Shown here in pieces: positions 7,723-30,570 of a stretch of 32,000 nt of DNA. The DNA is taken from NCBI GenBank assembly GCA_965228485.1, contig OZ245819.1:360001-392000 (forward strand), written 5' to 3'. The DNA comes from Candidatus Saccharimonadota bacterium (lineage in GTDB: Bacteria > Patescibacteriota > Gracilibacteria > UBA4473). Each line of letters begins with the position of its first letter. Within the stretch, counting starts at the first letter, position 1. Both the position numbers and the translations under genes were made by a program. The notes beneath the pieces were generated by a model that did no database searches, was not told the origin of the DNA, and saw nothing but the letters and a program-made list of their open reading frames with translations.

Positions 7723-8105
7723 TGGCAGAAATATTAGGATTGTTTAATAAGCCAATTGAGGCCAAAAAACTTTTAGAATTACACCCAAATGATCAAGAGA
7801 ATGTTTCTAAAGGCCTTACTCTTTTAGAAAGGCTCTCTGACGTTACTCAAATCCCAGAACTGAATACGGCGGATCAACAAGCGCTCTTCACCCTAGCGGC
7901 TATTGATGCTCGTGTAGGAGGTGGCATCATAGATACTCAACAAGCTCGTACTATATCATTTTTATTAAAGGATATTATTACTCCTGACATTGTGGCTCGT
8001 GCTATCATTAAAAGCTATGAACACCATGGATTGATAGGAGTCGGAGTTCTCCCTGAAGCAGAAATAATTGAAGGTTCAGTAAATACTTCCAAAAGCCTAA
8101 ATTAA
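7722..8105 (+). CDS. hypothetical protein (127 aa), translationally coupled to tkt
   Basis: The ATG overlaps the tkt stop (TAATG at 7720-7724). The protein is soluble and I recognise no motif. Coding status rests on ORF length and the coupling. Confidence 0.5.
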   Translation: MAEILGLFNKPIEAKKLLELHPNDQENVSKGLTLLERLSDVTQIPELNTADQQALFTLAAIDARVGGGIIDTQQARTISFLLKDIITPDIVARAIIKSYEHHGLIGVGVLPEAEIIEGSVNTSKSLN

Positions 8106-8166
8106 AAAGTTTATAAAAAGTTTTTCATTTATGATAGACTTCGGATCAAAGAACTATCAGATGTAA

Positions 8167-9354
8167 ATGAAAAACTTTTTTATCTTCGCTTTCACTCTTC
8201 TTAATATAGCCCTCCCAACGTCATCCTATGCATTATCTTTTGCTGAAGGAACCGTTTTTATTGATGCTGATACGGAGTCTGAGTGTAAATCTCTTGGTGG
8301 AGAATTTATGGAATGGGCAAATGAAACCTTTTGTACTCAAACGCCTCGAGATGAAATTCCATCTCCTTTTTCTGATATTCCAAGCAAGCATGAAAATGCT
8401 CAGGCTATTGACTATATGAAAACTCAGAAAATTATTGGTGGCTACCCTGATGGAACTTTTCAGGCTAAAAAACCTATCAATAGAGCTGAATTAACCAAAG
8501 TTGTTGTGGCTTTTAACTATGACGAGAGTGAAATTCAGTCTTGTGATCTTGATACCATTAAACTTTTAGATGTTAGTCAGGATGCCTGGTATGCTCCTTA
8601 TATTTGTTTGGCGAAAGCTAACAACATTGTCAAAGGTTATGACGATGGGACCTTTAAACCAGCTCAAAATGTAAACCTCGCTGAAGCCAGTAAAATCATG
8701 GGAAAAGGTGTTCGATCAAGCTTAAGTGATGGAAATGATATTTGGTTTAGACCTTATATGGAATATTTTTCAAATAAAAATGCCCTCCCTACTACTCTTA
8801 CCGCCTTTAATCAAAACCTTAATCGAGGCCAAGTGAGTGAAATGCTCTTCCGAGTGAAAGCAAGAGTATCCAATAAAGAATCTCTAAAATATGGAGAAGG
8901 TGCCTTATCTGCTCCAGAGGTGCCTGAAACTACTACTCCCCCACCGCTAGCTTGTGCGGCTTGTCCAGAAGGTACTATCTCAAAAGGCATGACTGACACT
9001 CGTTGTGGAACTTGTGAGCCCATTGAAGAACCTCAAGAATCCAATGCCGAATATCTTGAACTTAACACTGAGAATCTAGAAATTTATCTAGGAAAAAGAA
9101 AGATTGCTCTTTTCTTCCATGCCGATTGGTGTCCAAGCTGTCGAACCGCTAACACAGAAATTGCAGAAAATATAAAAACCTTCCCTAATGATACCGTAGT
9201 CCTTAAAGCTAACTTTGATACTGAGACAAAACTTCGAGAAAAATTTGGAATTACTCAACAACACTCTGTTGTCATCATCAATAAAAAGAATGAAGTAGTT
9301 CAAAAACTAGCCTACGGATTTACTATTGACCAATTAAAACTAGCTCTCAAGTAA
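8167..9354 (+). CDS. secreted SLH-domain protein with C-terminal thioredoxin-fold (WCPSC) domain
   Basis: Signal peptide 'MKNFFIFAFTLLNIALPTSSYA'. Two clear S-layer-homology repeats ('FSDIPSKHENAQAIDYMKTQKIIGGYPDGTFQAKKPINRAELTKVV' and 'LLDVSQDAWYAPYICLAKANNIVKGYDDGTFKPAQNVNLAEASKIM') plus a degenerate third. Then a Pro/Thr linker 'PEVPETTTPPP', a Cys-rich knot 'CAACPEGT..CGTC', and 'ALFFHADWCPSCRT' (thioredoxin-type CxxC). Confidence 0.8.
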   Translation: MKNFFIFAFTLLNIALPTSSYALSFAEGTVFIDADTESECKSLGGEFMEWANETFCTQTPRDEIPSPFSDIPSKHENAQAIDYMKTQKIIGGYPDGTFQAKKPINRAELTKVVVAFNYDESEIQSCDLDTIKLLDVSQDAWYAPYICLAKANNIVKGYDDGTFKPAQNVNLAEASKIMGKGVRSSLSDGNDIWFRPYMEYFSNKNALPTTLTAFNQNLNRGQVSEMLFRVKARVSNKESLKYGEGALSAPEVPETTTPPPLACAACPEGTISKGMTDTRCGTCEPIEEPQESNAEYLELNTENLEIYLGKRKIALFFHADWCPSCRTANTEIAENIKTFPNDTVVLKANFDTETKLREKFGITQQHSVVIINKKNEVVQKLAYGFTIDQLKLALK

Positions 9355-11151
9355 ATCTGCTAAGGAAGACTCTGATTTTTCTAAAACAGCTGCTGCCTGG
9401 TCCCATTCTGCATAAGCGACTATAAGTTTTTCGTGAATACGCTGATACTCAATTCCCAAATCCTCCATTTTTAGGCGGGCTCCCTGTCTTTCGGCGACTT
9501 TAAATTTTTCTTTATTCTCGGTAAGATCGTCTTCTATCTTTGCAATACGTTTTTCGATTTCATCGACAATTTTTTTATTGCGTCGACGGTCCTTTTCCAG
9601 TTGTTTTTTTTGCAATTTTAGATCATTGGTCACAACTCGCTTCTTCGGCTCACCTACAGATTCCTCAGCTTCATCTTGCCATCCTTTTTCTCTCAGAAAA
9701 TCATCATAACTTCCCTGAAAACCAAAAGGATAATCTCCCTCAAAAACAATAAATTTATTAGCGACCTGCCTCAAAACATCTTCATTATGAGAAACAAAGA
9801 CAATCCCTCCACTAAAATTTTTCATAGCTTGTATAAGGGCTTCAACGGACTCTAAGTCCAAATGGTTTGTTGGTTCATCTAAAAGTAATAAATGCCTTGG
9901 TTGAAGCATAACTTTCCCCAAAGCGACTCTATTTTTCTCCCCTCCAGAAAGAACTTCTATTTTTTTATACACCTCTCCTCCCCGAAACATAAGACTTCCA
10001 CACAATGCTCGTATAGAGGTTTCTGGCATATCTTTTACCGATTCTTGAAGCGTCTCTAGAATTGTCTTTTGAGATTCTAAGACTTTCTCATTAGATTGAT
10101 TGAAAATTACTTTTTGTAGATCAGGATGACACTTCAAACTCCCCGCTCTTAAAGATAAATCTTCTGATAGGCATTTTAGTAACGTCGATTTCCCTTTCCC
10201 ATTTTTTCCAATAATTGCCACCTTATCTCCAGGCTCAACTCGAAGATCAACTTTCGAAAATAAATCTTTTGTATCATAACCAAAGGTTAAATTTGTTCCT
10301 TGTATCATTCGATCACTATGAAACTCTAGAGCTTCAAATCTAAATTTTATTTGAGCGATAGCTTCTAATTTTTCTTTCTTCTCACGCTTTTCTAGAGCTT
10401 TAATTCGTGACTGCACAAGCCCCGCACTCCGAGCCCCAGCTCTAAATTCTCTAATAAATTTTTCTGTCTTCTGAGCCTTTTTTTCATCATTAAGCCGAGT
10501 CCTTTCATGAATCTCTTCCTCCTGTGAAATTTGTCTATAAATCTTACTCGTTGATCCCTCTAATTTCTTAATTCCTTGACGATGAATAGCCATTGTATGC
10601 GTCGTCACACTATCCATGAAATTTCTATCATGGGTAACCAGTAATAACTCCCCCTGCCATTCATTGAGGAAACGGGATAGCCAACGAAGTGAAACAATAT
10701 CAAGGTAATTTGTCGGCTCATCAAGCAATAATAAATCAGGCTCTCCTAAAAGTGTTTTAGCCAATTGAATCCTTATTTGATATCCCCCAGAAAAATCCTC
10801 TGGGGCTTTTTTTAGGTCTTCATTTTTGAATCCCAATCCATGCAACATTTTTTCAGCTCTCCAGAGATCGTGCTTTTGATGCTCCCGAAGCCCCAAAGCC
10901 GCTTCTTCTACAATATTGGGCCGAGTAAAGTTGAGATGTTGTTCCAAATACCCCACAACATAGTGCTCGGGCTTCATTATTTCTCCTTCGTCTGGAGCAT
11001 CTTTCCCGAGAATTATATTCAGTAGAGTCGTTTTCCCATGACCATTTCTTCCAACAAGACCTACTCGTTCCCCTGCATTAATATGAAAGGTAACTTCGTC
11101 CAGAAGTACTTGGCTCCCAAAAGACTTAGTCACAGATTTACACTGAATCAT
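9340..11151 (-). CDS. ABC-F family ATPase (two ABC cassettes, no TM domain; EttA/Uup-like)
   Basis: Walker A 'GRNGHGKTT' and 'GKNGKGKST'. Signatures 'FSGGYQIR' and 'LSGGEKNR'. Walker B 'LLLLDEPTN' occurs twice. The C-terminal tail is Lys/Glu-rich and coiled-coil-like. Confidence 0.9.
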   Translation of the reverse strand: MIQCKSVTKSFGSQVLLDEVTFHINAGERVGLVGRNGHGKTTLLNIILGKDAPDEGEIMKPEHYVVGYLEQHLNFTRPNIVEEAALGLREHQKHDLWRAEKMLHGLGFKNEDLKKAPEDFSGGYQIRIQLAKTLLGEPDLLLLDEPTNYLDIVSLRWLSRFLNEWQGELLLVTHDRNFMDSVTTHTMAIHRQGIKKLEGSTSKIYRQISQEEEIHERTRLNDEKKAQKTEKFIREFRAGARSAGLVQSRIKALEKREKKEKLEAIAQIKFRFEALEFHSDRMIQGTNLTFGYDTKDLFSKVDLRVEPGDKVAIIGKNGKGKSTLLKCLSEDLSLRAGSLKCHPDLQKVIFNQSNEKVLESQKTILETLQESVKDMPETSIRALCGSLMFRGGEVYKKIEVLSGGEKNRVALGKVMLQPRHLLLLDEPTNHLDLESVEALIQAMKNFSGGIVFVSHNEDVLRQVANKFIVFEGDYPFGFQGSYDDFLREKGWQDEAEESVGEPKKRVVTNDLKLQKKQLEKDRRRNKKIVDEIEKRIAKIEDDLTENKEKFKVAERQGARLKMEDLGIEYQRIHEKLIVAYAEWDQAAAVLEKSESSLADLLES

Positions 11152-16848: not shown

Positions 16849-19509
16849 CTAGTCATATTTCACCCAAAAAGTTCCGACACATTCGGTCCAAGCTCCCGTT
16901 TCTGTTTGAGAATAAACCCCGACTACATCATTGGCTCCAAACGCTACATTACAAGAAGTATTCGCCACACCTCCGACCGTTGTTGGAATACTCACATTAC
17001 AGGCTGTAGAAATATCATTAATTCTTACTTCGGCTCCCAAAGAAGTCCCTATTGCACCCGTACACGTTGCCGCAAGCCTTCTAATTGTCCCCGAACATCC
17101 CATAGGGCTTCCCCATGGCGTTTGTCCATTCCCAAGAGACCAAGAAGCATTCGAAACCACGGTCCCTCGCTCTGCCCAGAAAATCCCATACGGGCCACAC
17201 TCACTCTCAATATCAGAACCAAAAGTTGAGAAATTTCCGGCTGAATCATCCCATCCTAATTGTCGGTCTGTCCCATCATCAAACGTAATAAACGAATCAG
17301 TCGCTGTCCCATCACCAATTTCAATTACTTGACCCGTTTCGTTAATATCAAGATTATCTGAGATATCAAACTCAGCGTTAGTATTGTCCCAGGTAATAGT
17401 CTCGTTATTGGTGGTTCCATAGCGCAGACTTACGTCTCCGCCCGTATTATCATCATCTAGTGTAAAAGTTTCAGCAGAAGTCCCCGCTCCAACCGAACCT
17501 GGATCCCCCTTAGAGGCCATAAGCTCCCAGTAAGTCCCGTCACTTGGATTTTGGCTTGCGGTCGTATCAAGGATACAAACATAGGTCGAACCCTGATAGC
17601 TCACCGCTTGATTCGTGGTATAATTCTGTGAAACCCAAGCTCCTTCCCAAGTTATATCTCCATCTGCCCCTGCTGATCCAGTAGCCCCCGTCGGTCCCGC
17701 TGGTCCTTGAGGCGCTTTCAATTGCACTACCGATAGTGAAGATTGACCACTAATCATATTGGCTACTCCAGCTGTGGTATTTTCTCGATCCACTAATACT
17801 TCAAAGTAGTCATTGGCATTCAAATCTAGAACGGTAGAAAAAACCAAAGAAGTTTCCGTTTGTCCAGAAGTCATCCGAATGTAACCTGGCTGAAACCTCA
17901 TTGGCAAAACCGTCACGCCGTTAACTCTAAACTTCACTCGACCGTTATAACGGAAATTATTGGTCACTGCATTTTCTACTGACACGGCTCCACTGACATG
18001 ATACTTCCCATCGGCTAAAACCTGAACTCGGCTGTTGTTGATCACTGTATCATGGGTAAAAGCCGCCGCATCTTCAAAATCTTCAGTGTCCCACGGAACT
18101 ATATTATCTGTTGCTGCCGCATTTAGGTCGGTCGTAGAAGTATCTCGATAACGCGCAGCTAACATATCTCCAAGAGTTGCCGTATTCGCATCAATTTGCA
18201 CCCACCCACTCCCGTCACAAACATAGGTAAAGGTATCGACCGTATTGTGGTACATCCGCCCGCTAGCCGCTCCATCACACGTAGGAGCTACCGTTCTATT
18301 TTCAATTCGAGCATCAACTAGCTCATTCGCATTCAGGCTTAAATCATCACTCACTTCAAACTGAGAATTTGACGAATTCCAGGCAAACGTCTCATTAAGG
18401 GTTTCTCCGAACTGAACGGTCAAATCCCCTCCTGTGTCATCACTATCAAGCGTGACGGTATTTCCTGTCTGGAGAATCTCACCGGTTACTTCCAGATCAT
18501 CACTCAGGTTAAATCGGGCATTAAGACTATCCCAGGTCAAACTTTCATTAAGGGTTTGACCAAAAATCAAACTTAGAGCCCCTCCTGTATCATCGTTATC
18601 AATCGTAAAAGTTTCATCATCAATCGTTGGTCCGCTGCTCCCAGGGTCTCCTTTTTCCCCTTTAATTCCTTCTAGCTTAATAATAGAAAAATAAATCTCG
18701 TCCTGAGTTGCATCAGTCGTTGCATCACGCTGAAGCTGAAGAGAGATGAAATCCCCATCACTCAAATTTGCCAAGAACGAAGCTGAAGTAGTAGAAAACT
18801 CTCCTTGGTAATTTTTATTCACGGACGCAGAACCCGGTAAAACCGTCGTATCATTTACTCGTACTCGAGCTCGAGCCTCATGAGTTCCAGTAGCGGTCCC
18901 TCCAGCGGTATAACCGTAAATAATCTGATACATAGCCGTCGCCCCAATATCAATCCGATCTCGAAACGTGTCATCATGATCCAGTGTTGTTGTATCATTT
19001 TCTAGATCCGTCGTATCCAGGTCAATGTCCGCGTAAGACGTAGTCAACGTATATGAAGTGGTTCGTCTTGCCTGCACAACTGGAAACTCAATGGTTGCGT
19101 TCAGGGCATTCTCCAAAGGATTCCAAGTCCCTGCCCCATCACAAGTATAGGTCAAAACATCCAAAGTATTGAAGTAAATTTTCCCAGCCGCTGCGGCATC
19201 ACACGTTGGGGCTGTACTGAGATTTTCTATTCTTAAATTCTGTAATTCGTTCCCTGAGAAATCTGTATCACGATTAATCTGGAAATTATCTCCAACGACG
19301 TCATATCGCATCTTAGCATCAACTGTACTTCCAAACTCAAGATCAATAAAATCGTCTGACGTGTCTCCAGAATCTATGTAAAAAGTTTGGCTGTGAACTC
19401 CATTTTCTTCGGTTGAAAAAATCACTCCTGCATACCCTTGTAAAGGCACAATTCCCCCTAGGAATAAACTTAATAATTTTGTGGTTAAACTCCTCTTCCC
19501 AAAAAGCAT
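16849..19509 (-). CDS. secreted fibre/adhesin-like mosaic protein with collagen-like G-X-Y runs (886 aa)
   Basis: N-terminal signal-like 'MLFGKRSLTTKLLSLFLGGIVPLQGYAG'. Four copies of a 'TF[TY][IL]DxDDTGGxLxLxFGxTLNExxxWxxxxxxFxxSDDL' module (aa ~42, 300, 351, 681). Two copies of a Cys-pair module 'RIENxxxAPTCDxAAxGxxYxNTxDxxTYxCDGxGxW' (aa ~92-129 and 401-437). Two ~110-aa beta-rich domains, each ending in a G-X-Y run. CBM5/12-like 'WVSQNYTTNQAVSYQGSTYVCILDTTASQNPSDGTYWEL'. Cys-rich C-terminal domain (aa ~769-886). Confidence 0.8.
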   Translation of the reverse strand: MLFGKRSLTTKLLSLFLGGIVPLQGYAGVIFSTEENGVHSQTFYIDSGDTSDDFIDLEFGSTVDAKMRYDVVGDNFQINRDTDFSGNELQNLRIENLSTAPTCDAAAAGKIYFNTLDVLTYTCDGAGTWNPLENALNATIEFPVVQARRTTSYTLTTSYADIDLDTTDLENDTTTLDHDDTFRDRIDIGATAMYQIIYGYTAGGTATGTHEARARVRVNDTTVLPGSASVNKNYQGEFSTTSASFLANLSDGDFISLQLQRDATTDATQDEIYFSIIKLEGIKGEKGDPGSSGPTIDDETFTIDNDDTGGALSLIFGQTLNESLTWDSLNARFNLSDDLEVTGEILQTGNTVTLDSDDTGGDLTVQFGETLNETFAWNSSNSQFEVSDDLSLNANELVDARIENRTVAPTCDGAASGRMYHNTVDTFTYVCDGSGWVQIDANTATLGDMLAARYRDTSTTDLNAAATDNIVPWDTEDFEDAAAFTHDTVINNSRVQVLADGKYHVSGAVSVENAVTNNFRYNGRVKFRVNGVTVLPMRFQPGYIRMTSGQTETSLVFSTVLDLNANDYFEVLVDRENTTAGVANMISGQSSLSVVQLKAPQGPAGPTGATGSAGADGDITWEGAWVSQNYTTNQAVSYQGSTYVCILDTTASQNPSDGTYWELMASKGDPGSVGAGTSAETFTLDDDNTGGDVSLRYGTTNNETITWDNTNAEFDISDNLDINETGQVIEIGDGTATDSFITFDDGTDRQLGWDDSAGNFSTFGSDIESECGPYGIFWAERGTVVSNASWSLGNGQTPWGSPMGCSGTIRRLAATCTGAIGTSLGAEVRINDISTACNVSIPTTVGGVANTSCNVAFGANDVVGVYSQTETGAWTECVGTFWVKYD
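17482..17508 (-). repeat. collagen-like G-X-Y run 3 (GDP GSV GAG)
   Basis: Three Gly-X-Y triplets, aa 668-676. Confidence 0.6.
17656..17706 (-). repeat. collagen-like G-X-Y run 2 (GPA GPT GAT GSA GAD GD)
   Basis: Five to six uninterrupted Gly-X-Y triplets, aa 602-618, directly upstream of the CBM5/12-like motif. Confidence 0.8.
18625..18669 (-). repeat. collagen-like G-X-Y run 1 (GIK GEK GDP GSS GPT)
   Basis: Five uninterrupted Gly-X-Y triplets, aa 281-295 of the fibre protein. Confidence 0.8.
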
Positions 19510-19643: not shown

Positions 19644-20408
19644 ATGTTAAAAATTAAAAATCTCAAAGCCACTTTATCTGAGGAAGATTTATCAATCCTC
19701 AAAGGCATAGATTTAGAAGTAAATCCTGGAGAAATTCACGTTATTCTTGGACCAAATGGTTCTGGAAAATCGACTCTAGGACGCGCAATTTTGGGAGATG
19801 AAAGATACGAAATAACCGATGGAAGCATCGAGTTTGATGGACAAGACTTTGGAGAACTAGAGCCAAGCGAGCGAGCACAAGCCGGATTTTTTCTTACTTT
19901 TCAATCTCCGCCAGAAATTGATGGAGTGAGGGTAAAGGAGTTTTTATTCGCAGCTAAAAAGTCTTTTGATGAGGATTTCACTTCAAGCTTTAAACTTAAA
20001 AAAGAACTACAAAAAAACTTTAACGACCTTCGACTTCCAGAAGAATTTATCGACCGTGAAGCAAACCTCGGATTTTCTGGAGGAGAAAGAAAAAAAATGG
20101 AAGTTGCCTCACTGCTCACCCTTCAACCAAAACTCGCATTCTTGGATGAAATCGATTCAGGGGTAGATATTGATACTATCAGAAGCATTGGCACTTCTCT
20201 TAGAGCTTTCATGGAAGACAAAACGCGATCGATTGTACTCGTTTCACATTCAGATAAACTCTTTCAAGAAGTAGAAGCGACACATGTACATATCTTTTAT
20301 CAGGGAAAAATTGTAAAATCTGGAGGGAAGGAGCTTATCGATGAAATTCAAACAGAAGGATTTGATAGTCACATTAAAGCTCACAACCCTCTAAAAGTTC
20401 TCCAATAA
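19644..20408 (+). CDS. sufC: Fe-S cluster assembly ATPase SufC
   Basis: 'GPNGSGKSTLGRAILGDERYEITDGSIEFDGQD', 'GFFLTFQSPPEIDGV', 'LGFSGGERKKMEV' and 'LAFLDEIDSGVDID' form the SufC-specific ABC pattern. Confidence 0.9.
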   Translation: MLKIKNLKATLSEEDLSILKGIDLEVNPGEIHVILGPNGSGKSTLGRAILGDERYEITDGSIEFDGQDFGELEPSERAQAGFFLTFQSPPEIDGVRVKEFLFAAKKSFDEDFTSSFKLKKELQKNFNDLRLPEEFIDREANLGFSGGERKKMEVASLLTLQPKLAFLDEIDSGVDIDTIRSIGTSLRAFMEDKTRSIVLVSHSDKLFQEVEATHVHIFYQGKIVKSGGKELIDEIQTEGFDSHIKAHNPLKVLQ

Positions 20409-20410
20409 CA

Positions 20411-21778
20411 ATGTTTAAAAAAATTTTCATCACTCTCTGTTTCATTTTCAGCATTGGAAATATTGCTCAAGCAGCAAATCCGGTATCTGACATTGTCGAG
20501 AGTGCAACTGATCCAAAGAACTATTTTATTTTTGGACAAATCCAGAGCTACTATGATGTCATTGATGAACTCAATAGTAAGAAAGTAGAACTCGAGGTTC
20601 TTGAACAAAGTCGAAGTGTGCAAGAAAAATCTATTACAAAGCTAAAAGAAGAAATCCGATCTCTTGGAGCTGAAACGGTTTCACTTTCTGATCAAATTGA
20701 AGCCCTAAACATACAAGAAGAAATATCTCCTTCAGACAAATTGCGGCTAGAAAACCTAAATGCGGAATTAAACGACACACAAACGGTTCTCGATGATCAA
20801 AAAAAGAAACTCATAGCACTAGAAAATGAACTTTCAGGAAGTTTCACAGAAGCTCAAACGGAAAAAACTATTTTACTACAAAATGAAATTTTTCAGCTAG
20901 AAGAAGACCTTGCTACCAGCCAAATTCGTTTAAAAAACTACGTCGAGGATTACATTAAAAAAATAGTTCTGGCGATTGCTATATGGATTGTGGCATCAGT
21001 ACTCAAATGGATTATTACTAAGATTTTTAATCGAATTAATTTTTCAGTTACTGCTCAACGAAAAGCCTTTATTCTTCAACTTATAAAGATCACGATAAAT
21101 ACGGTCGCTATTATTGCGATTTTGCTGGTGTTCTTCTCCCAACTCATTAGAGCTCTCCCCTACTTTGCTATCTTTGCAACCGTTATCACCCTCGCCCTAA
21201 AAGATGTTATCTTATCAGTTATTGCTTGGATTATTATTGGAACTAAAGATGGCTACAAAGTTGGACATTACCTTCATATTGGAGATTTATGGGGAACCGT
21301 TGTAGAGATCAATCCCTTCAACACCATCGTAAGACAGGGCGGAATATCTGGTCCGACCGGTCGACTCCTTACCTTCCCAAACAAAAAGATTTTTGAAGAG
21401 TTCTTAGAAAATTGGTCTAAATGGCACAACTTCACTTACCTCAAGTGGGACTTCTTTTTAGAAGCTGATAGTAATTTTGATAAAGCCGAAAAAATTATGC
21501 TTAAAATTATGGGAGAAGCCCAAAAAGAGTACAAAGAAAAGATGCTTCAAAAGAAAAATCAGCTGCTTAAGCTAGGGATTCGTGAAGAAAATTTAGACCC
21601 AATGGTTTTCTGGGAAACTCAAGCCAATGGTCTGCTTTTGAGAGGCAAGCTGATTGTAGATTTTGATCTTTTTTTTGAGATCAGAACCAGAGTAACTCGC
21701 GATTTTATAAAGGCGATTCAAAAAGAACCCGATATAAAACTCAGATTTGTGAATAATTTAGTGTCTAACTCATTGTAA
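20411..21778 (+). CDS. MscS-family mechanosensitive channel with N-terminal signal peptide and ~150-aa coiled coil (455 aa)
   Basis: Signal 'MFKKIFITLCFIFSIGNIAQA'. A heptad-rich region spans aa ~50-180, followed by three or four TM helices. MscS beta-domain 'YKVGHYLHIGDLWGTVVEINPFNTIVRQ...LLTFPNKKIF'. The start lies 2 nt after the sufC stop. Confidence 0.75.
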   Translation: MFKKIFITLCFIFSIGNIAQAANPVSDIVESATDPKNYFIFGQIQSYYDVIDELNSKKVELEVLEQSRSVQEKSITKLKEEIRSLGAETVSLSDQIEALNIQEEISPSDKLRLENLNAELNDTQTVLDDQKKKLIALENELSGSFTEAQTEKTILLQNEIFQLEEDLATSQIRLKNYVEDYIKKIVLAIAIWIVASVLKWIITKIFNRINFSVTAQRKAFILQLIKITINTVAIIAILLVFFSQLIRALPYFAIFATVITLALKDVILSVIAWIIIGTKDGYKVGHYLHIGDLWGTVVEINPFNTIVRQGGISGPTGRLLTFPNKKIFEEFLENWSKWHNFTYLKWDFFLEADSNFDKAEKIMLKIMGEAQKEYKEKMLQKKNQLLKLGIREENLDPMVFWETQANGLLLRGKLIVDFDLFFEIRTRVTRDFIKAIQKEPDIKLRFVNNLVSNSL

Positions 21779-21797
21779 AAAATTATCCCAGACCGCA

Positions 21798-23771
21798 TTA
21801 ATAAGAATTCAACCTTAATTCAATACCCTCATCACCATCCCATCCATAAATGACTTGTGCTAAGATGGCATAGTGATCTTTTTTTGAAGCAGGCTGAAGC
21901 TTAGGAAAACCAAATATAGTAGCGATAGAGCTTAGCCCCTTCCCATAAAATTTTAGTTTCTTCTTTTCTTGCTGTGTTAATTGCATCCAACTTTCCAGCG
22001 TGGGATATTGTTCTTTTATTATCTCCCTCCACTTCTCCAAGCCCCAAAGTTCACAGTCAATTATATCATGCCCCTCTCCATATATAGCTCTTCCGATTTT
22101 AGCCCAGCCAGGCCTAGCTGAATTTATTTTTTCTTCCACCCCTAAAAGAGAAGCAAGGGTTACGAACCCTTTTCCATAAAAATTTAACTGACTCTTATCT
22201 TTCGGCGTTAATGCCATCCAAATTTCAGGGGTTGGATATCTTTCTTTTATTGTCTTTCTCCACTTATCTCTATCCCAAAATTCACAATTAATAACGTCAT
22301 GATTTTTTCCATAAATACCCTGTCCCAATAGAGCGTGATCTTGTTTCCTACCAATAGGATTTCCCTCAACATTTCCAAAAATCGTAGCTATAACTCTTAA
22401 TCCTCTTCCATAAAATTCCAATGTATTTCTTTGTGCAACCGTTAACTGCATCCAACTTTCTGGTGTTGGGTACTTTTCTTTTATGACATCTTTCCACTTA
22501 TCCTTACCCCAAAACTCACACTCAACTATCTCATGCCCCTCTCCATAAATTTTTTGTGCTAATCGGGCACAATCTAAAAGGTTGTTATGCGGTAGCCCTC
22601 CCGACCCCAAAATACCAGCTATAGCCGTCAAACCTTTGCCCTGAAATTTTAGAACTAGTTTTTCATCTGCACTTAGACTTATCAACTCTTCAGGCGTTGG
22701 GTATGCTTTTTTTATTTCTGTCCCCCATCTTTCCCCACTCCAGAATTCACATTCAATTATGTCATGCCCCTCACCATAAATTTTTCTCCCTAAGTCGGCT
22801 TGTGCAGAACGAACCGAAAGCACATCTCCAGACGCTCCCAAAATGGTAGCAATAGCCCTAATGCCTCGACCATAAACTTTTACAAACTTTTTTTCCTTTG
22901 CGGTTAATCCCATCCAATGTTCTGGTTTTGGGAATTCAGATTTTATTTCATTGATAAACAAAGTCTGTTCTGCTGATTTTTCAGAGTTAACAAAACTGTG
23001 CCTTCGGTCTTCAATATCTCTTGAGAGAGCTTCTACTATCTCAGTTCGCCAGTGATCAATGCTGTTATATTTTATTCTTTTACTCACAAAATTTGACTGA
23101 ATTTGTTTTTTATCAAATTCTTTAGCGACGTTCAAAGAAACTAGCTCCTTACATACAAAAGTTGCTTGTCCATATGCTTCACACAATAAAACGCTTCGTC
23201 CGATGGTTGGTAAATGAACTAGAATATAACTTTCTTCTCTCCTCATTTCTGATGAATTTGTGCCCTCAATGGCAAAAATTTGATCGGTATAGATGCCTAA
23301 GTCTCTTAAGACCAAAATTAACTGGGGTAGAAGTTTACCAGTTCTTTCCCTTTTTTCTTGATTTTTATCACACGCTTCAGTTCTTTGGGAGGCTATCGCT
23401 TGTGGCGGTAAGATTGTTTCTTCTATTTTTGTGTGTGGAATGCCTAGTTCATTAAATAAATCTTCTTCTTCTGATTTCTGGAGAACCTCATCTAAACGCC
23501 GTATAACACTTTCCAAATAAACATCTATACTTTCGGCTTTCTCAGACAAAAGTAGCTGAAGAATTCGTTTAACGACCTTATCTCGCTGTTCCACAAAATA
23601 ATCGTCTAGAGACTTTGTATTTTCTTTTTGTTTTTTTACACAAATTTGTTCAACAGCCTCCTCTATTTCAATCAAAACTCTTAAAATAGCTTCAGATCCT
23701 GGTTTTGTTTCCAACAAGACTTGAAATTCTTCAAAATTCTTTACAATACTTGAGCTCAGTGATTCACTCAT
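21798..23771 (-). CDS. orphan repeat protein: ~280-aa N-terminal region plus five ~77-aa tandem repeats (657 aa)
   Basis: Long uninterrupted ORF with ATG at 23771. Repeats start at aa 281, 358, 435, 513 and 590, with conserved 'PTPExWMxLT...FYG[KR]G[LIF]xxIA...IYGEGH[DE][IV][IV]xCEFWxxx[KR]WxxxIKExY'. I recognise no family. Confidence 0.8.
   Translation of the reverse strand: MSESLSSSIVKNFEEFQVLLETKPGSEAILRVLIEIEEAVEQICVKKQKENTKSLDDYFVEQRDKVVKRILQLLLSEKAESIDVYLESVIRRLDEVLQKSEEEDLFNELGIPHTKIEETILPPQAIASQRTEACDKNQEKRERTGKLLPQLILVLRDLGIYTDQIFAIEGTNSSEMRREESYILVHLPTIGRSVLLCEAYGQATFVCKELVSLNVAKEFDKKQIQSNFVSKRIKYNSIDHWRTEIVEALSRDIEDRRHSFVNSEKSAEQTLFINEIKSEFPKPEHWMGLTAKEKKFVKVYGRGIRAIATILGASGDVLSVRSAQADLGRKIYGEGHDIIECEFWSGERWGTEIKKAYPTPEELISLSADEKLVLKFQGKGLTAIAGILGSGGLPHNNLLDCARLAQKIYGEGHEIVECEFWGKDKWKDVIKEKYPTPESWMQLTVAQRNTLEFYGRGLRVIATIFGNVEGNPIGRKQDHALLGQGIYGKNHDVINCEFWDRDKWRKTIKERYPTPEIWMALTPKDKSQLNFYGKGFVTLASLLGVEEKINSARPGWAKIGRAIYGEGHDIIDCELWGLEKWREIIKEQYPTLESWMQLTQQEKKKLKFYGKGLSSIATIFGFPKLQPASKKDHYAILAQVIYGWDGDEGIELRLNSY
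21801..22931 (-). repeat. coding tandem repeat array, 5 units of ~231-234 nt (last unit truncated)
   Basis: The periodicity is visible in the translation and, more weakly, at nucleotide level. For example, the recurring ccataaaa(a)ttt...ccatccaa...cacttatc...aattcaca segments on the + strand at ~21945, ~22175, ~22410, ~22640 and ~22870 (positions estimated by eye). Confidence 0.8.
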
Positions 23772-23806
23772 TTTAATTAATTTAATATCAAATAAATTTT
23801 TGTCAA

Positions 23807-25216
23807 ATGTCAGATGTTCTTGATTTCACTTCTCTTGACCGTGACGACCTTGACCATGCTGATAGTCAAGATTACGTAAGCAAATACCAAAAAGGATTGT
23901 CTGAAGATTTAATCCGACTGATTTCAAAAGAAAAAAATGAACCTGATTGGGTTTTGGATATTCGGCTAAAAGCTTTTGCTGAATTCAAAAAACGAACTAC
24001 CCCTGCTTGGGGTCCAGACCTTTCAAATCTAGACTTAGACGAAATTGTATATTTTGCTTCTCCTGACGCTGAAAAAAATCAAAAATCATGGGATGATGTA
24101 CCTGATGAAATCAAAAGAACTTTTGAGCGGCTTAAAATCCCAGAAGCTGAACGAGCCGTTTTAGCCGGAGTTGGAGCACAGTATGACAGTGAGACCGTGT
24201 ACCATAATTTAAAAGATGAATGGACTGATCAGGGAGTTATTTTTGAGGACTTCGATGTTGCGATTCAAAAATACCCAGAACTAGTAAAAAAATATTTTAC
24301 CAAATGCATTCCAATCAATGATCATAAATTCTCAGCCCTTCATTATGCAATCTTTTCTGGCGGAACATTTCTCTATGTTCCAGAAGGGGTAGAAGTAACC
24401 CAACCACTACAGGCTTATTTTCGGATGAATGCCAAAAATGGAGGTCAATTTGAACACACTTTAATCGTTGTTGAAGATGGCGCTGACGCCGAATACATAG
24501 AAGGATGTTCCGCCCCAAAATTTGGAAGTAACTCTCTTCATGCAGGAGGTGTTGAACTCTTTGTTGGTAAAGGAGCTCGAGCTCGATACTCTTCTGTAGA
24601 AAACTGGTCTCAAGACACTTATAATCTCAACACAAAAAGAGCCCTGGTCCAAGAAAAAGGAAAGGTTGAATGGATCGGAGGAAATTTAGGTTCAGGGACA
24701 ACCATGCTATATCCTGCTTCTGTTCTTATGGGAGATTATTCCAAAGCTGATCACCTAGGGGTGGCCTTTGCCAATAAATACCAGAACCAAGATACAGGAG
24801 CAAAGATCACTATTCTTGGAAAGAATGCCCGAGCCTCTGTAGTTTCAAAAAGCCTCTCAAAAGGGGGGGGAATCTCAACTTACCGAGGTTTACTAGATAT
24901 CAAAAAAACTGCTGATAATGCTATTGTGACGGTTGAATGTGATGCCCTCATGCTCGATGACTTAGGGTCTGTAAGTGACACAATCCCACACATCAACTGC
25001 GAAAATGATTCTGCACAAGTGAATCATGAAGCCAGTGCTGGGAAAATTTCTGACGAAGTACTCCTCTACTTTGAATCTCGAGGAATTGATGAGGAGACTG
25101 CAAAAGGAATGATCGTTAATGGTTTCTTGGATGAAATTGTTAAAACGCTTCCCCTTGAATATGCTGGAGAACTCAATCGATTGATTGAACTGGAAATGGA
25201 AGGAAGTGTTGGATAG
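23807..25216 (+). CDS. sufB: Fe-S cluster assembly scaffold SufB
   Basis: 469 aa. 'HYAIFSGGTFLYVPEGVEV', 'HTLIVVEDGADAEYIEGC' and 'NHEASAGKISDEVLLYFESRGIDEETAKGMIVNGF' are typical SufB motifs. Confidence 0.92.
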   Translation: MSDVLDFTSLDRDDLDHADSQDYVSKYQKGLSEDLIRLISKEKNEPDWVLDIRLKAFAEFKKRTTPAWGPDLSNLDLDEIVYFASPDAEKNQKSWDDVPDEIKRTFERLKIPEAERAVLAGVGAQYDSETVYHNLKDEWTDQGVIFEDFDVAIQKYPELVKKYFTKCIPINDHKFSALHYAIFSGGTFLYVPEGVEVTQPLQAYFRMNAKNGGQFEHTLIVVEDGADAEYIEGCSAPKFGSNSLHAGGVELFVGKGARARYSSVENWSQDTYNLNTKRALVQEKGKVEWIGGNLGSGTTMLYPASVLMGDYSKADHLGVAFANKYQNQDTGAKITILGKNARASVVSKSLSKGGGISTYRGLLDIKKTADNAIVTVECDALMLDDLGSVSDTIPHINCENDSAQVNHEASAGKISDEVLLYFESRGIDEETAKGMIVNGFLDEIVKTLPLEYAGELNRLIELEMEGSVG

Positions 25217-25275
25217 AGAATTAAGCCTCAATTAATTTTAAGGCCTGTCTCTTCCAAAAATCACATCAATCTTAA

Positions 25276-25572
25276 TCACTCCAAAACGAGCCTGAGCCGC
25301 ACATGACACCGCTCTAATGTGTCTGATTTTAAAGGAGTTCCTGGAGCAGGAAGGCACTCTTGAAATCCTCTTTTTTTGGCTTCGGAAATAAATTTTGAAA
25401 CACTCTCTTGAACCTCTTCCCCCAAAACAATTCCCCCAGTTCTATTAGTGACCTCAAGAAATGCTAGTCCTGCAGAAGTCACATTCCGGTGCAATGCCAA
25501 ACCCATGAAGTCTTGCAGACTTTTTAATTGTTCCTGTCCCCAAAGTGATTCTGTTTCTCTATAAGTTTCCAT
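25276..25572 (-). CDS. hypothetical protein (98 aa)
   Basis: ATG-initiated ORF that fills the gap between sufB and the next genes. No motif recognised, so coding status is uncertain. Confidence 0.35.
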   Translation of the reverse strand: METYRETESLWGQEQLKSLQDFMGLALHRNVTSAGLAFLEVTNRTGGIVLGEEVQESVSKFISEAKKRGFQECLPAPGTPLKSDTLERCHVRLRLVLE

Positions 25573-25672
25573 CTTAATAAATTTTTAATACGGCAGGGTT
25601 TTATTTTTTCAGAGGAAAAGTGTCAAAAAAAATTGTTTGTTGATATAAATCCAGAGATATATTTCAAAATAC

Positions 25673-25912
25673 ATGAAGAGAGAGACTATCGATCAAATAA
25701 ATAAACGAGTCGACAGCAATAAGCAATGGGAAACAAGCTGGACACGCAAAGTAGTTATTGCTGCTATTACCTATATCAGTGCTTTAATTTTTCTATGGGT
25801 TATTGAAGTTCCCGATCCTTATTTAGCAGCGCTCGTTACAACTGGTGGTTTTTTACTCTCAACTTCAACACTACAGCCAATACGAATACTCTGGGAAAAA
25901 TATAAAACCTAA
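25673..25912 (+). CDS. small two-TM membrane protein (79 aa)
   Basis: Charged N-terminus followed by two hydrophobic helices ('VVIAAITYISALIFLWVI' and 'LAALVTTGGFLLS'). No family assignment. Confidence 0.4.
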   Translation: MKRETIDQINKRVDSNKQWETSWTRKVVIAAITYISALIFLWVIEVPDPYLAALVTTGGFLLSTSTLQPIRILWEKYKT

Positions 25913-27006
25913 TTATTTCGATCAAAGCTAACCGTTCGAATCAGGTCCAGTTCTAAGTAAACATCTTCCCCCAAAACTTCTGATAATTGAGATTCGATTT
26001 GATTAAATTTTGCTCGAGTAAGAGAAACCGATTCTGGAACATAAAATGTTCCATTGATGGTTTTTACGTCTTCATCCTGGCGAAGCGTGAGATTTTTTAT
26101 TCGTGCTCCAGGCATCTCCACTTCGATAATTGATTCAAACGACTGTCTAGTTTGCTCTAAAATAACTCGTTGTTGCTGAATTTTACCCAGATTAAAAGAA
26201 AGTAATATCCATAAACCAAGAGTCACCACCAAAAGAAACGCTATTTTTCCGAGAGAAGATTCTGTCTGCGAACGATGAGGATTAAATCCATAAAATATAA
26301 AGAGTATCGTTCCCACCACCAATATGGCCACCAAATTAGTAATAAACAGCAATGTGGCTCCCCAGGCTAAATCCATATTCCCCCAAAAAAGCTCTATTCC
26401 GATTACGACCAGGGGTGGCATCAATGCTGTAGCCATCGCCACCCCTGCTACGCTTTCATACAGTCGTTTATAGGCGTGAGCCAGAATAGCAATTATCGCC
26501 GAAAATATAGCGATCAAAAGATCGATCAAATTTGGTTGAGTTCGGGCCAAAATTTCGTCTGTCGACTCTACTCCCGAAAGAAAAAATAAAACTATCATGG
26601 GAGTCAAAATCGAAACCAAAACGCTAATAGATAGGAGTTTTAATCCTCGGGCGAATAACTCAGCTCGTCCTAAAACAATTGAGTAAGCCAATCCCTGAAT
26701 CGGTCTCAACAGCGGAGCTATAAGCATGGCTCCAATAATCACCGCCACAGAATTTTGAAGTAACCCAAAAGTTGCTACAAGAGCGGCTAGTATTAATTCT
26801 ATCCAATAGAGTTTTGTCGTTTTCACGCCTTCCGATACTCGTTGAGAAATCTCAGCCTTAGCTTCTGGAGGCTGCTGCATAATAGCTAATTTATCGAACA
26901 TCACATCAAATATATAATCCCAAGAAGCCCCTTCTGGTAACCCTAGGAATTGCTTTAATTTATTTTCAAAACGAATCCATTTAAACCTAATTTTAGTCTT
27001 GTCCAT
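25909..27006 (-). CDS. DUF389/TIGR00341-like polytopic membrane protein (365 aa)
   Basis: Six to seven TM helices with 'GAMLIAPLLRPI' and 'ALMPPLVVIG' (paired x-[LM]-x-PPL/PL motifs typical of DUF389), then a soluble C-terminal domain. Confidence 0.6.
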   Translation of the reverse strand: MDKTKIRFKWIRFENKLKQFLGLPEGASWDYIFDVMFDKLAIMQQPPEAKAEISQRVSEGVKTTKLYWIELILAALVATFGLLQNSVAVIIGAMLIAPLLRPIQGLAYSIVLGRAELFARGLKLLSISVLVSILTPMIVLFFLSGVESTDEILARTQPNLIDLLIAIFSAIIAILAHAYKRLYESVAGVAMATALMPPLVVIGIELFWGNMDLAWGATLLFITNLVAILVVGTILFIFYGFNPHRSQTESSLGKIAFLLVVTLGLWILLSFNLGKIQQQRVILEQTRQSFESIIEVEMPGARIKNLTLRQDEDVKTINGTFYVPESVSLTRAKFNQIESQLSEVLGEDVYLELDLIRTVSFDRNN

Positions 27007-27080
27007 CTAAAAAATGCTACTTATGAATCAAAATTGATAAAGCTCTTTTCAAAACTTGAAAATTCAATACATTCTTTGTG

Positions 27081-27608
27081 ATGAAAATTGATAATCCAAA
27101 CGGACAGAAAACGGTTACTGTAGAGAAAGATCAATCGATGGAAATTTTCTTAGAGGATTTTGAAAATGGATCTCGAGATTTTACCTTAACGGTGGAACTC
27201 ATTGGAGAAAATGCCGAGTGTCATGTTTATGGTCGTGCCCAAACTACTGGAAACGACCGAAAGTCTTGGCAAGTAAAACAAGTCTTCAAAGGAAAAAATC
27301 AAACCGCTTCAATCGATCTCAGAGGAACGGCAGAAGATCAAAGCTTTCTTGAATTTGATGGTGCTGGACACCTGACAACAGAATCGGAAAATGCTGACGC
27401 TAATATTGAAGAAAAAATTATTCTCTTTGATGAAGCCAAAGGAAAATCACTTCCCGTTTTACGGGTCGAAACAGACCAAGTAAAATCGGCAGGTCACGGA
27501 GCATCCATCGCTCCAGTAGATAAAGAAAAAGTCCTCTACTTTCAGTCTAGAGGTGTGAATAAAAAAGAAGCAGAAAAGCTGATTAAAGCTGGTTTCTTAA
27601 GTTTTTAA
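27081..27608 (+). CDS. sufD: minimal SufD-like (SufBD family) protein, 175 aa
   Basis: The C-terminal 'VKSAGHGASIAPVDKEKVLYFQSRGVNKKEAEKLIKAGFL' is the SufB/SufD signature end. The preceding ~130 aa are beta-helix-like. The tracked start is GTG 27078, but ATG 27081 is more likely. Confidence 0.7.
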   Translation: MKIDNPNGQKTVTVEKDQSMEIFLEDFENGSRDFTLTVELIGENAECHVYGRAQTTGNDRKSWQVKQVFKGKNQTASIDLRGTAEDQSFLEFDGAGHLTTESENADANIEEKIILFDEAKGKSLPVLRVETDQVKSAGHGASIAPVDKEKVLYFQSRGVNKKEAEKLIKAGFLSF

Positions 27609-27623
27609 ATACTCCCTTAAACT

Positions 27624-28478
27624 ATGCAAGATTTCATTAACAATATTCCGTGGCAGCACTACCTTAATCTTATGCTAGAGAGTGCTGGAAGCTTTACTCC
27701 CAAATTTTTTGGAGCGATCCTTACCCTTATCATTGGATGGATTGTGATCAACCGAGTCATTCGACTCATCAATAGGTTTTTTCAACGAACAAATCTTGAT
27801 GAAGCGCTAGAAACATTTTTAGAAAGCTTTTTAAGTATTGGCTTAAAGATTATTTTACTCGTTATTGTAGCTTCTATGTTGGGAATCCAAACCAGCTCCC
27901 TTGTGGCGCTGATGGGGGCTGCTGGGTTAGCGGTTGGGTTAGCTCTACAAGGGAGTCTTTCTAATTTTGCGGGTGGAGTTCTTATCCTTGTTTTCAAACC
28001 TTTTCGAATTGGAGATTATATTGACGCTCAAGGACAGGGCGGAACCGTCACTCAAATCCAAATTTTTAATACGGTGCTGAAGACCCCAGACAATAAAAAA
28101 ATTATTCTCCCAAACGGAAATCTTGCAAACGACGTGATCATAAACTTTACTGACCAGAAGGAACGACGTGTCGATTTTATCTTTGGAATTGGGTACAACG
28201 ACGATATTAAAAAAGCCAAAACTGTTTTAGAAAAAATTGTCGCTACTGATGAAAGAGTTCTCACAAAAAAAGATTACGAACCACAAATTGTCGTTGGGAA
28301 TCTAGGCGAAAGCAGTGTGGATATCTGGTGTCGAGTCTGGGTAAAGACTGATGACTATTGGGATTTCTTTTTTGAGAAAAATGAAGCCGTAAAAGTGGCT
28401 TTTGATAAAAATAATATTTCTATTCCCTTTCCTCAAACAGACGTTCATCACTACTATCCAGAAGGAGAAAACAAATAA
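27624..28478 (+). CDS. mscS: small-conductance mechanosensitive channel MscS (284 aa)
   Basis: Pore helix 'GAAGLAVGLALQGSLSNFAGGVLILVFKPFRIGDYI' and beta domain 'GTVTQIQIFNTVLKTPDNKKIILPNGNL'. Confidence 0.88.
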   Translation: MQDFINNIPWQHYLNLMLESAGSFTPKFFGAILTLIIGWIVINRVIRLINRFFQRTNLDEALETFLESFLSIGLKIILLVIVASMLGIQTSSLVALMGAAGLAVGLALQGSLSNFAGGVLILVFKPFRIGDYIDAQGQGGTVTQIQIFNTVLKTPDNKKIILPNGNLANDVIINFTDQKERRVDFIFGIGYNDDIKKAKTVLEKIVATDERVLTKKDYEPQIVVGNLGESSVDIWCRVWVKTDDYWDFFFEKNEAVKVAFDKNNISIPFPQTDVHHYYPEGENK

Positions 28479-29733: not shown

Positions 29734-30570
29734 ATGAATTTAGAAAATATCGATTTTCAGAAGTATTTGGATGTAGTTATGGAGCTGGTTATTAACTATA
29801 CGCCAAAACTACTACTTGCCCTATTAACGCTCATAATCGGGCTTTTTATTATCAAACATATTACCAAAATTCTTGATAAAGCTTTTGCTCATCAAAAACT
29901 TGAACCTTCGCTAGCCGGCTTTCTTCACAGCCTAATCAGTATTGCTCTAAAAGTAGTATTAATTATTACTGTCGCGGGGATGGTAGGCGTCCAAATGACT
30001 TCTTTTATTGCTATCCTGGGAGCTGCAGGACTCGCTATTGGTTTAGCGCTTCAAGGAAGTTTGGCCAACTTTGCTGGTGGAGCATTAATTCTATTTTTTA
30101 AACCTTTTAAGGTTGGCGATTACATTGTAACGGGAATGGGTGAAGGTTACGTTCAACAGATTCAGATATTTAATACTATTTTGAAAACTCGAGATGACCG
30201 TTTCTTAATTCTTCCAAATGGAGACCTCTCAAATGGAGCTATAGACAATTACTCTGCTTTACCAAAACGCCGAGTACATGTAGATATTGGTGTGGCTTAC
30301 GATTCGGATATCGATGAAGTACGCGAAATTTTAATGAAAGTTATGGAAGACCTAAAACTTCCGGATGAACCGAAAAAATGTGTTTTGGTTCATGAACTTG
30401 GAGACAATGCGGTTATTATGAGATGTCGATTTTGGATGCCCGCCCCAAAAAGTTTTAAGATTCGATACGATATCAATGAAGCCGCAAAAAAAGCACTTGA
30501 TAAGGCTGGCGTTGGAATTCCGTTCCCCCAAAGAGACATTCATCACTATTATCCTGAAGGTAAAAAATGA
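29734..30570 (+). CDS. mscS: small-conductance mechanosensitive channel MscS, paralog of 27624-28478 (278 aa)
   Basis: 'GAAGLAIGLALQGSLANFAGGALILFFKPFKVGDYI'. It aligns with the first copy along its full length, including the shared C-terminus 'PFPQRDIHHYYPEG' versus 'PFPQTDVHHYYPEG'. Confidence 0.88.
   Translation: MNLENIDFQKYLDVVMELVINYTPKLLLALLTLIIGLFIIKHITKILDKAFAHQKLEPSLAGFLHSLISIALKVVLIITVAGMVGVQMTSFIAILGAAGLAIGLALQGSLANFAGGALILFFKPFKVGDYIVTGMGEGYVQQIQIFNTILKTRDDRFLILPNGDLSNGAIDNYSALPKRRVHVDIGVAYDSDIDEVREILMKVMEDLKLPDEPKKCVLVHELGDNAVIMRCRFWMPAPKSFKIRYDINEAAKKALDKAGVGIPFPQRDIHHYYPEGKK

Follow-up and report, generated by a model that had tools for sequence, protein, structure and literature searches.

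A tandem-repeat gene in the suf cluster of a Patescibacteria genome represents a large, unnamed protein family with a possible DNA-binding array

ORF657 is a gene for a tandem-repeat protein within the suf cluster of contig OZ245819.1. The window, i.e., the whole 32,000-nucleotide (nt) stretch of this contig that was analysed (positions 360,001 to 392,000), carries in this region sufC, a gene for an MscS-like protein of 455 amino acids (aa), ORF657 on the minus strand, sufB, a 98-aa open reading frame (ORF) and a DUF389 gene, both on the minus strand, a gene for a 176-aa SufD-core protein and two MscS genes, in this order. sufC and sufB are parted by two genes (the MscS-like gene and ORF657), and sufB and sufD by two more minus-strand ORFs. 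ORF657 occupies 21798..23771 and is a complete ORF, with an ATG start that is backed by the alignment of its N-terminus with those of homologues, 657 aa and a stop codon. The product is a soluble protein of 75 kDa with neither a transmembrane segment nor a signal peptide (maximum 19-residue Kyte-Doolittle score 1.11). The composition of the gene (GC 0.373; GC at third codon positions 0.288) is typical of the window and native-like, and TGA is read as a stop codon.

A first-pass annotation of the window had described a 657-aa minus-strand ORF with five repeats of about 77 aa, starting at aa 281, 358, 435, 513 and 590, and this description holds. Its spacers of 19 nt and 35 nt were also right, the latter being the distance to sufB; however, the gene does not lie directly between sufC and sufB, as had been stated, since the neighbour at 19 nt is the MscS-like gene (20411-21778, plus strand). 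The parts of the protein, all encoded on the minus strand, are the following.

23442..23771, minus strand: four-helix bundle (aa 1-110), from the AlphaFold2 (AF2) helices 5-22, 27-50, 55-74 and 82-99
22992..23441, minus strand: alpha/beta domain (aa 111-260), from the AF2 model (predicted local distance difference test score, pLDDT, mostly >90) and a conservation alignment
22932..22991, minus strand: helical linker from the N-terminal module to the array (aa 261-280), from the AF2 model at lower confidence
22701..22931, minus strand: repeat 1 (aa 281-357), from the alignment of the copies and a hidden Markov model (HMM)
22470..22700, minus strand: repeat 2 (aa 358-434), from the alignment and HMM; modelled in m65d08b9a3017
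22236..22469, minus strand: repeat 3 (aa 435-512), from the alignment and HMM; modelled in m65d08b9a3017
22005..22235, minus strand: repeat 4 (aa 513-589), from the alignment and HMM
21801..22004, minus strand: repeat 5 (aa 590-657), the terminal copy, with a full core

The five copies align cleanly with a period of 77-78 aa and pairwise identities of 35-49% at the protein and 59-64% at the DNA level. A DNA repeat finder reported four copies of 176 nt at spacings of 231, 234 and 231 nt, with 64-73% identity. Since the copies are diverged in their DNA, they do not stem from an assembly duplication, as the first-pass annotation had already argued; it had also noted correctly that the fifth copy lacks the second half of the unit, the CE[FL]W..KW linker, and this copy ends after IYG. 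An HMM built from the five copies recovered each of them at E-values between 2e-29 and 4e-42 and detected 2-11 copies in nine other proteins. This recurrence is far beyond chance.

The number of relatives depended on the sensitivity of the search. A word-indexed search of 5.8 billion proteins with ORF657 returned nine relatives, the best of which is 34% identical. In an exhaustive HMMER search, an alignment of the N-terminal region and the first repeat was used as the query and the representatives of 50%-identity clusters were counted; the search yielded 1,211 representatives at E ≤ 1e-3, of which 685 reached E ≤ 1e-10 and 222 reached E ≤ 1e-30. Among the 150 best-scoring representatives, most have the same layout, in which an N-terminal module of ~280 aa (N-module) is followed by repeats, with 1-11 repeat stretches. 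The 69 proteins that were analysed have between 1 and 11 repeats, most often 4-5, and the period is mostly 72-99 aa. The first-pass annotation had suggested looking at taxonomic spread and copy number. A genome scan with a tight alignment of the repeat yielded eight loci, and all eight come from metagenome-assembled genomes (MAGs) whose labels read Candidatus Peribacteria, Peregrinibacteria, Gracilibacteria or 'Patescibacteria group'. The IMG/VR viral contigs that were scanned yielded no relatives. The family has so far been found only in Patescibacteria of the Gracilibacteria/Peregrinibacteria type, which fall within the candidate phyla radiation (CPR).

Some members show features of their own. 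One Peribacteria MAG (L010) carries two tandem family paralogues, at 6423-8408 and 8422-9978, with five and three repeats. In P0003, a homologue on a 4-kb ENA contig, Trp stands at many of the conserved Gly positions of the repeat (IQWKWL, IFWISWNP, LLWQKIYGEW), which points to a Gracilibacteria/Absconditabacteria host that reads UGA as Gly (code 25) and to a gene that was translated with UGA as Trp. Many family genes on metagenome contigs stop at the contig edges, as expected if repeats break assemblies.

No credible match for ORF657 or for the N-module-plus-repeat proteins was found in Pfam, NCBIfam, PADLOC or PHROGs; PADLOC gave noise matches only for these proteins (E ≥ 0.008, no significant stretch). 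PDB searches with four sequence profiles likewise returned nothing credible, and no description of the family was found in the literature. The earlier verdict that the protein is unassignable is therefore upheld, also by the structure comparisons given below. Several candidate matches were rejected. Those to CTE_SPB4 (PF13959), DUF2481 (PF10654), Importin_rep, Slx4, PASTA and others, from Pfam scans of 44 single repeats and 66 full members, contain no single significant stretch, and unrelated families accumulate in this way in repeat-rich proteins. When CTE_SPB4 and DUF2481 were tested, the whole-protein score exceeded the cut-off only in P0002 (47 bits), where it was summed over 11 repeats, and P0018 likewise matches many unrelated families. 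Such summed weak scores, in which no stretch is significant, are additive repeat noise. The NCBIfam model NF033676 (N-terminus of a Lactobacillus serine-rich adhesin) scored 28 bits against a cut-off of 45 at window positions 21801-21875 (aa 598-622, repeat 5), on 'WMQLTQQEKKKLKFYGKGLSSIATI' / 'KLKFYGKGL'; this was taken to be a chance resemblance to the KxYKxGKxW signal-peptide motif.

Taken together, the size of the family, the conservation across proteins and the confident structure models exclude a spurious ORF or an assembly artefact, and ORF657 is a genuine accessory gene. It belongs to a new, large and unnamed family, which contains two candidate new folds inside a familiar kind of protein, the helical tandem-repeat binding array plus effector.

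Conservation within the unit was measured over 296 repeats of the family. The conserved core spans positions 1-53, and its conserved residues are P1, T2, W6, K/R14, G21, G23, L24, I27, A28, F31, G32, P37, L47, G48, I51, Y52 and G53; conserved basic positions (14, 18, 22, 49 and 50) stand beside the G21-x-G23 hairpin. The second half of the unit is a lineage-specific linker, and most relatives swap the CE[FL]W..KW segment for other linkers, which in many of them are longer charged helices. In homogenised arrays (P0018 and P0002), the copies differ at few positions, namely 10-11, 15, 20-22, 25, 29, 34-36 and 38-43. Variation that is limited to few positions in this way is the pattern expected of residues that contact a ligand.

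The structure of the repeat was predicted with AF2 for repeats 2-3 of ORF657, with 40 aligned double repeats as input (model m65d08b9a3017; pLDDT 96.3, predicted template modelling score, pTM, 0.84). The predicted unit has six helices (3-7, 11-16, 24-31, 41-52, 57-63 and 66-76) and a tiny beta-hairpin at the G-[KR]-G motif. The high pTM of the two-repeat model suggests a fixed geometry between repeats, i.e., an array that would be solenoid-like. A Foldseek search of the PDB with this model returned a single match, the ARM-type superhelix of mesothelin, which is insignificant (E 2.8), and no helix-turn-helix (HTH) protein. With 44 single repeats, no helix-hairpin-helix (HhH) family was matched in Pfam at E ≤ 1, nor any HTH family significantly.

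The N-module was modelled with 66 aligned relatives as input (model m35e87ff01897; pLDDT 87.9, pTM 0.83). The model shows a four-helix bundle (aa 5-109) and then an alpha/beta domain (aa 113-256). The sequence of the bundle is variable, and only L33 and E37 are invariant among seven aligned sequences. In the alpha/beta domain, the family has a conserved ILPP motif (119-123) and the invariant or nearly invariant residues D164, G170, R178, Y182, P188, E202, K221 and W241. Nothing significant was found by Foldseek with this model, the best E-values being 0.5 in the PDB and 0.08 in BFVD, and the top PDB matches look like generic helical bundles. The order of elements in the alpha/beta domain (helix 147-157, strands 166-169, 183-187, 192-196 and 204-207, helices, strand 229-233) is compatible with the alpha-beta-beta-beta-alpha-beta core of PD-(D/E)xK nucleases. 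The corresponding catalytic motif was not found, however: there is no (D/E)xK on the strands of the domain, several members have H, Q or K in place of the acid at position 186, and no nuclease was among the Foldseek matches.

Both parts of the protein also occur in other combinations. In a second architecture, a ResIII/DEAD/Helicase_C helicase carries the repeat array at its C-terminus. This arrangement was found in P0010, in six more representatives (P0088, P0099, P0109, P0115, P0138 and P0150) and at locus L012. The helicase matches phrog_16 ('DNA helicase', E 1e-55), and among solved structures the XPB/Rad25 DNA-dependent ATPases are the closest to it; in PADLOC, the fusions matched generic superfamily 2 (SF2) helicase models, with a likeness to PbeA and type IV restriction helicases. 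P0077 and P0136, on the other hand, have the same N-module and one canonical repeat, which is followed by three to four different repeats of ~65-70 aa with the consensus 'APEGWMT..lA..l.vs..tv.k.ie.yr.eHPEWF...sPeLv'. The sub-threshold Pfam matches of these variant repeats are mostly to HTH DNA-binding families (among them HTH_17, HTH_36, NUMOD1, DeoR, GntR and KfrA_N). Homology between the canonical and the 'APEGW' repeats could not be demonstrated (hhalign probability 11% over 12 columns). Furthermore, P0040 joins the same N-module to a unit of ~95 aa ('SPRD.AYYSDPENTRRDLEAFAW'), and P0113 to yet another repeat region. The N-module is thus combined with several kinds of repeat array.

The arrays are basic, with a median isoelectric point (pI) of 8.9, a pI above 8 in 53 of the 69 proteins and a net charge of about +3 per repeat core. 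The N-module is acidic, with a median pI of about 5.3. It is these basic arrays, together with the XPB/Rad25-like helicase fusions and the HTH-like repeats of some relatives, that favour DNA as the ligand. Tentatively, we propose that the array may well dock on or track along double-stranded DNA and thereby deliver the N-module, or in the sister proteins the XPB-like translocase. We infer both the ligand and the logic of a targeting array plus effector from indirect evidence. In such a mechanism, the five six-helix units of ~77 aa would stack in a fixed geometry, and each unit would touch DNA with its conserved basic residues and its G-[KR]-G hairpin. If there is any specificity, positions 10-11, 15, 25 and 34-43, which vary, would confer it. 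The acidic N-module, i.e., the four-helix bundle and the alpha/beta domain with its conserved D/R/Y/E/K set, would be brought to the DNA by the array, and in the sister proteins the same array would instead deliver an SF2 DNA translocase of the XPB/Rad25 type.

Several points weigh against this proposal. The repeat has no significant sequence or structure match to any DNA-binding fold. Proteins, not nucleic acids, are very often the ligands of helical repeat arrays, and the fusion partners of helicases can be protein-recruitment modules. The array of P0002 is acidic (pI 5.9). The HTH-like matches of the variant repeats are all sub-threshold, and their kinship with the canonical repeat is the one that hhalign did not bear out. 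An extended form of the proposal holds that the ~77-aa unit is an unrecognised class of modular DNA-recognition repeat, in which each copy reads a short stretch of DNA through positions 10-11 and 15 (helix 2), position 25 (start of helix 3) and the loop 34-43, and which serves at least two types of effector; it would then be what TALE or PPR arrays are elsewhere, but specific to CPR bacteria and built on a new fold. We consider this form improbable.

The alternative that survives best is that the array binds protein in the manner of TPR, HEAT or ARM repeats. In this case, ORF657 would be a gene of the conflict or defence type and its product a sensor or scaffold, in which the repeats sense a foreign or host protein and the N-module or the helicase acts as the effector. 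The repeat is all-alpha with a fixed stacking, as in such proteins, and the only Foldseek match, although insignificant, is an ARM-type superhelix. The family is patchy and fast-evolving in its distribution (34% identity to the best homologue versus 88% for SufB), the copy number varies from 1 to 11, tandem paralogues occur in L010 and the gene itself lies in an insertion hotspot (see below). The helicase version moreover adjoins a HicA toxin gene and shows the likeness to PbeA and type IV restriction helicases noted above. However, the N-module-plus-repeat proteins have no match in PADLOC, no defence island was found around the genes, whose neighbours are housekeeping genes (hisS, tsaD, rpoB, NTP transferase and suf), and no relatives turned up in the scan of IMG/VR viral contigs. 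The basic arrays and the HTH-like replacement repeats also fit a nucleic acid better. Protein binding is therefore regarded as possible, if rather unlikely.

RNA is a less probable ligand still. The array could bind it in the manner of PPR, PUF or OPR proteins, with a role in RNA processing or ribosome biogenesis. A basic array would suit this role as well, and 8 of the 66 members gave a weak summed match to CTE_SPB4, a C-terminal extension that rRNA DEAD-box helicases carry; P0002 has the whole-protein score of 47 bits given above. In addition, the P0006 homologue is flanked by hisS, tsaD and a gene of the CCA-adding-enzyme type. The CTE_SPB4 signal, however, belongs to the additive noise described above, as no stretch was significant alone in the two proteins scanned singly. 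The fused helicase is of the XPB/Rad25 type and matches a phage 'DNA helicase' rather than a DEAD-box RNA helicase. For these reasons, binding to RNA is judged unlikely.

The first-pass annotation had read the protein as a multi-HTH nucleic-acid binder. Binding to nucleic acid is indeed the best reading, but its more specific suggestion, in which each unit holds an HTH of the sigma70-region-4/LuxR type and the protein is a five-fold, transcription-factor-like binder, fares poorly. It was founded on the spacing LTxxExxxLxxxxxGxxxxxIAxxxG in the first half of the repeat. Sub-threshold matches to Sigma70_r4_2, HTH_38 and HTH_Tnp_IS630 do occur in a few members or repeats, and the variant repeats of P0077 and P0136 resemble a classical HTH. 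Sigma70_r4_2, however, was matched in only 3 of the 66 full proteins (best E 0.032), and the 44 single repeats gave no match to it at E ≤ 1. Between the predicted helices 11-16, 24-31 and 41-52 lie a 7-residue beta-hairpin and then a 9-residue loop, whereas an HTH has two helices joined by a tight turn of 3-4 residues, the second being the recognition helix. A five-fold HTH is thus very improbable.

Also from the first-pass annotation came the notion that in the second half the invariant His, Cys and Glu serve as metal ligands or catalytic residues; a connection with Fe-S assembly was considered along with it, given the suf location. This reading is scarcely credible: the three residues are present in all four full copies of ORF657 and in a subgroup of homologues (P0003, P0004, P0006 and P0013), but over the 296 repeats His56 occurs in 34% of the copies, Glu62 in 27% and Cys61 is outside the top three residues (top residue 15%), most relatives carry unrelated linkers in place of the whole segment (72-99 aa period), and the suf loci of close relatives lack the gene, its homologues never having been found beside suf.

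The suf locus itself was compared with those of three relatives (L027, L028 and L029), whose SufB is 85-88% identical. They share with the window a wider synteny of folP, tmk, folD, a K channel gene, sufC, sufB, sufD and MscS; the closest named relatives of the SufB of the window are from Gracilibacteria and Peregrinibacteria. None of the three has an ORF657 homologue at the suf site. The arrangements and the features found by the comparison are as follows.

L028 (1.326-Mb contig): sufC and sufB contiguous; sufD ~190 nt downstream, no gene between
L029: sufC, an MscS-like gene, then sufB; 6 nt from the MscS-like stop to the sufB start
L027: sufC, a DUF5698 gene, sufB, then a 541-aa gene on the minus strand
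21779..23806, no strand assigned: accessory segment absent from L029, from the synteny comparison
23779..23806, minus strand: promoter-like site TTGACA-16 nt-TAAATT, with a consensus match of 10/12 and its last base 8 nt 5' of the ORF657 ATG

Since the MscS-like stop of L029 is 6 nt from the start of sufB, the segment 21779-23806 is an accessory insertion relative to L029. When a transposon-like insertion was sought at 21779..23806, neither target duplications nor terminal inverted repeats were found. Elsewhere, homologues occur in unrelated contexts, where they adjoin hisS and tsaD, rpoB or NTP-transferase genes. No suf gene was found in the 26 family loci (by tblastn for L001-L012 and by clustering of neighbours against the ORFs of the window for all 26), and no conserved operon partner recurs across 22 distinct loci. 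NTP_transferase was considered as a partner, as it is a neighbour in three loci, but the arrangements differ and the association was judged coincidental. The accessory status of ORF657 follows from the synteny with the three relatives, the lack of a conserved neighbour and the 34% identity of the best homologue as compared with 88% for SufB. ORF657 is therefore an insertion into the suf cluster, as the first-pass annotation had supposed; it is neither a Suf component nor functionally linked to Suf, and it landed in the cluster by chance. In this clade, the suf cluster is a hotspot of insertion. In the window (19644-28478), L027 and L029, the cargo between the suf genes differs and includes the MscS-like gene, ORF657, the DUF5698 gene, the 541-aa gene, DUF389 and small ORFs.

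The spacer 23772-23806 is an AT-rich divergent stretch of 35 nt shared by ORF657 and sufB, in which the promoter-like site lies and no obvious Shine-Dalgarno sequence is seen. The number of promoter-like sites in the region is not above that expected from shuffling. A promoter at 8 nt before the ATG would give a nearly leaderless ORF657 mRNA, as far as a match to the consensus can indicate, and with so short a divergent spacer, both ORF657 and sufB would need near-leaderless or very short-leader transcripts.

Other genes of the window were noted in passing. The MscS-like protein (20411-21778, plus strand, 2-nt gap after sufC) has a long coiled-coil-like N-terminal half with weak SMC-type matches; L029 has a counterpart of its gene in the same position (56% identity), whereas L027 and L028 lack it there, and two more MscS paralogues are located at 27624-28478 and 29734-30570. 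The SufD-like protein (27078-27608, plus strand, 176 aa, GTG start) matches the SUFBD core only along the latter's C-terminal two thirds. As relatives have the same form of SufD, with 174 aa, this is a conserved short SufD and not a truncation. The ORF at 16849-19509 (minus strand, 886 aa) has a signal-peptide-like N-terminus, collagen-like G-x-y runs, internal 'TGGD(L/V)S..FG..L' repeats and a weak CBM_5_12 match. Its GC content of 0.447 is clearly above the window average. L029 lacks this ORF and L028 conserves it only in part; its product may be a variable fibre or surface protein. In the stretch of the window with the lowest GC content (0.29-0.31 versus ~0.38), which is possibly foreign DNA, lies the gene for a 990-aa KAP-family P-loop NTPase (2739-5711, minus strand).

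If the array binds DNA, the family would provide a new repeat fold for nucleic-acid recognition that occurs widely within a single radiation of bacteria that are uncultured and host-dependent, and that has been re-used with a DNA translocase; it would open a route to lineage-specific systems of genome maintenance or conflict in CPR bacteria. Should the variable positions encode specificity, the repeat might also become a new programmable binding scaffold. Whatever the function, two confidently predicted domains that have no significant Foldseek match (both against the PDB, the N-module also against BFVD) are candidates for new folds, and the suf locus shows that unrelated cargo genes gather between sufC, sufB and sufD in this clade.

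At most, ORF657 would act as a DNA-binding array of the TALE or HEAT-like sort that is coupled to an effector. Among known systems, the HTH proteins (sigma70 region 4, LuxR GerE and HTH_17-type) resemble the family in the spacing of the first half of the repeat and in the HTH-like variant repeats that are found on the same N-module in P0077 and P0136. The canonical repeat, in contrast, fails the Pfam HTH models, and its predicted helices lack the tight turn. The HhH motif was compared as well, because the model has a helix, the G-[KR]-G hairpin and a helix, with G21 and G23 conserved. Relative to the pattern hxxhxGhGxxxAxxh, the hydrophobic and Ala positions of the repeat are shifted by one, as judged by eye, and one member gave a weak HhH-GPD match by summed score.

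HEAT and ARM repeats, including the DNA-binding HEAT-like repeats of AlkD, are similar in that the ORF657 repeat is all-alpha and is predicted to pack in a fixed manner from one repeat to the next. The segment 'LxAIAxxFGxxGNP' further resembles the 'AAxALGxIGD' hairpin of PBS-HEAT/alphaRep proteins, which surfaced as summed weak matches for the variant repeats. The differences are that no significant match was obtained in Pfam, the PDB or Foldseek, and that the ORF657 unit is about twice as long, with a small beta-hairpin at G-K-G.

TALE-like repeats are two-helix units of ~34 aa in near-identical copies that differ at two specificity residues. Like the TALE, RipTAL and Bat arrays, the ORF657 family has tandem helical units in variable copy number that are fused to different modules, and the copies in P0018 and P0002 are nearly identical save for a handful of positions. 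The unit, however, has 72-99 aa and six helices rather than 33-35 aa and two, and there is neither sequence nor Foldseek similarity, nor has a base-recognition code been shown. The copies within ORF657 are only 35-49% identical, and only some relatives are homogenised.

The XPB/Rad25 SF2 translocases differ from ORF657 in that the latter has no helicase domain, and to our knowledge, as far as sequence searches reach, the array is not homologous to known XPB accessory domains. The likeness lies in the sister architecture, in which the same array is joined to an XPB-like helicase core, and this fusion suggests that the array is a DNA-handling accessory domain.

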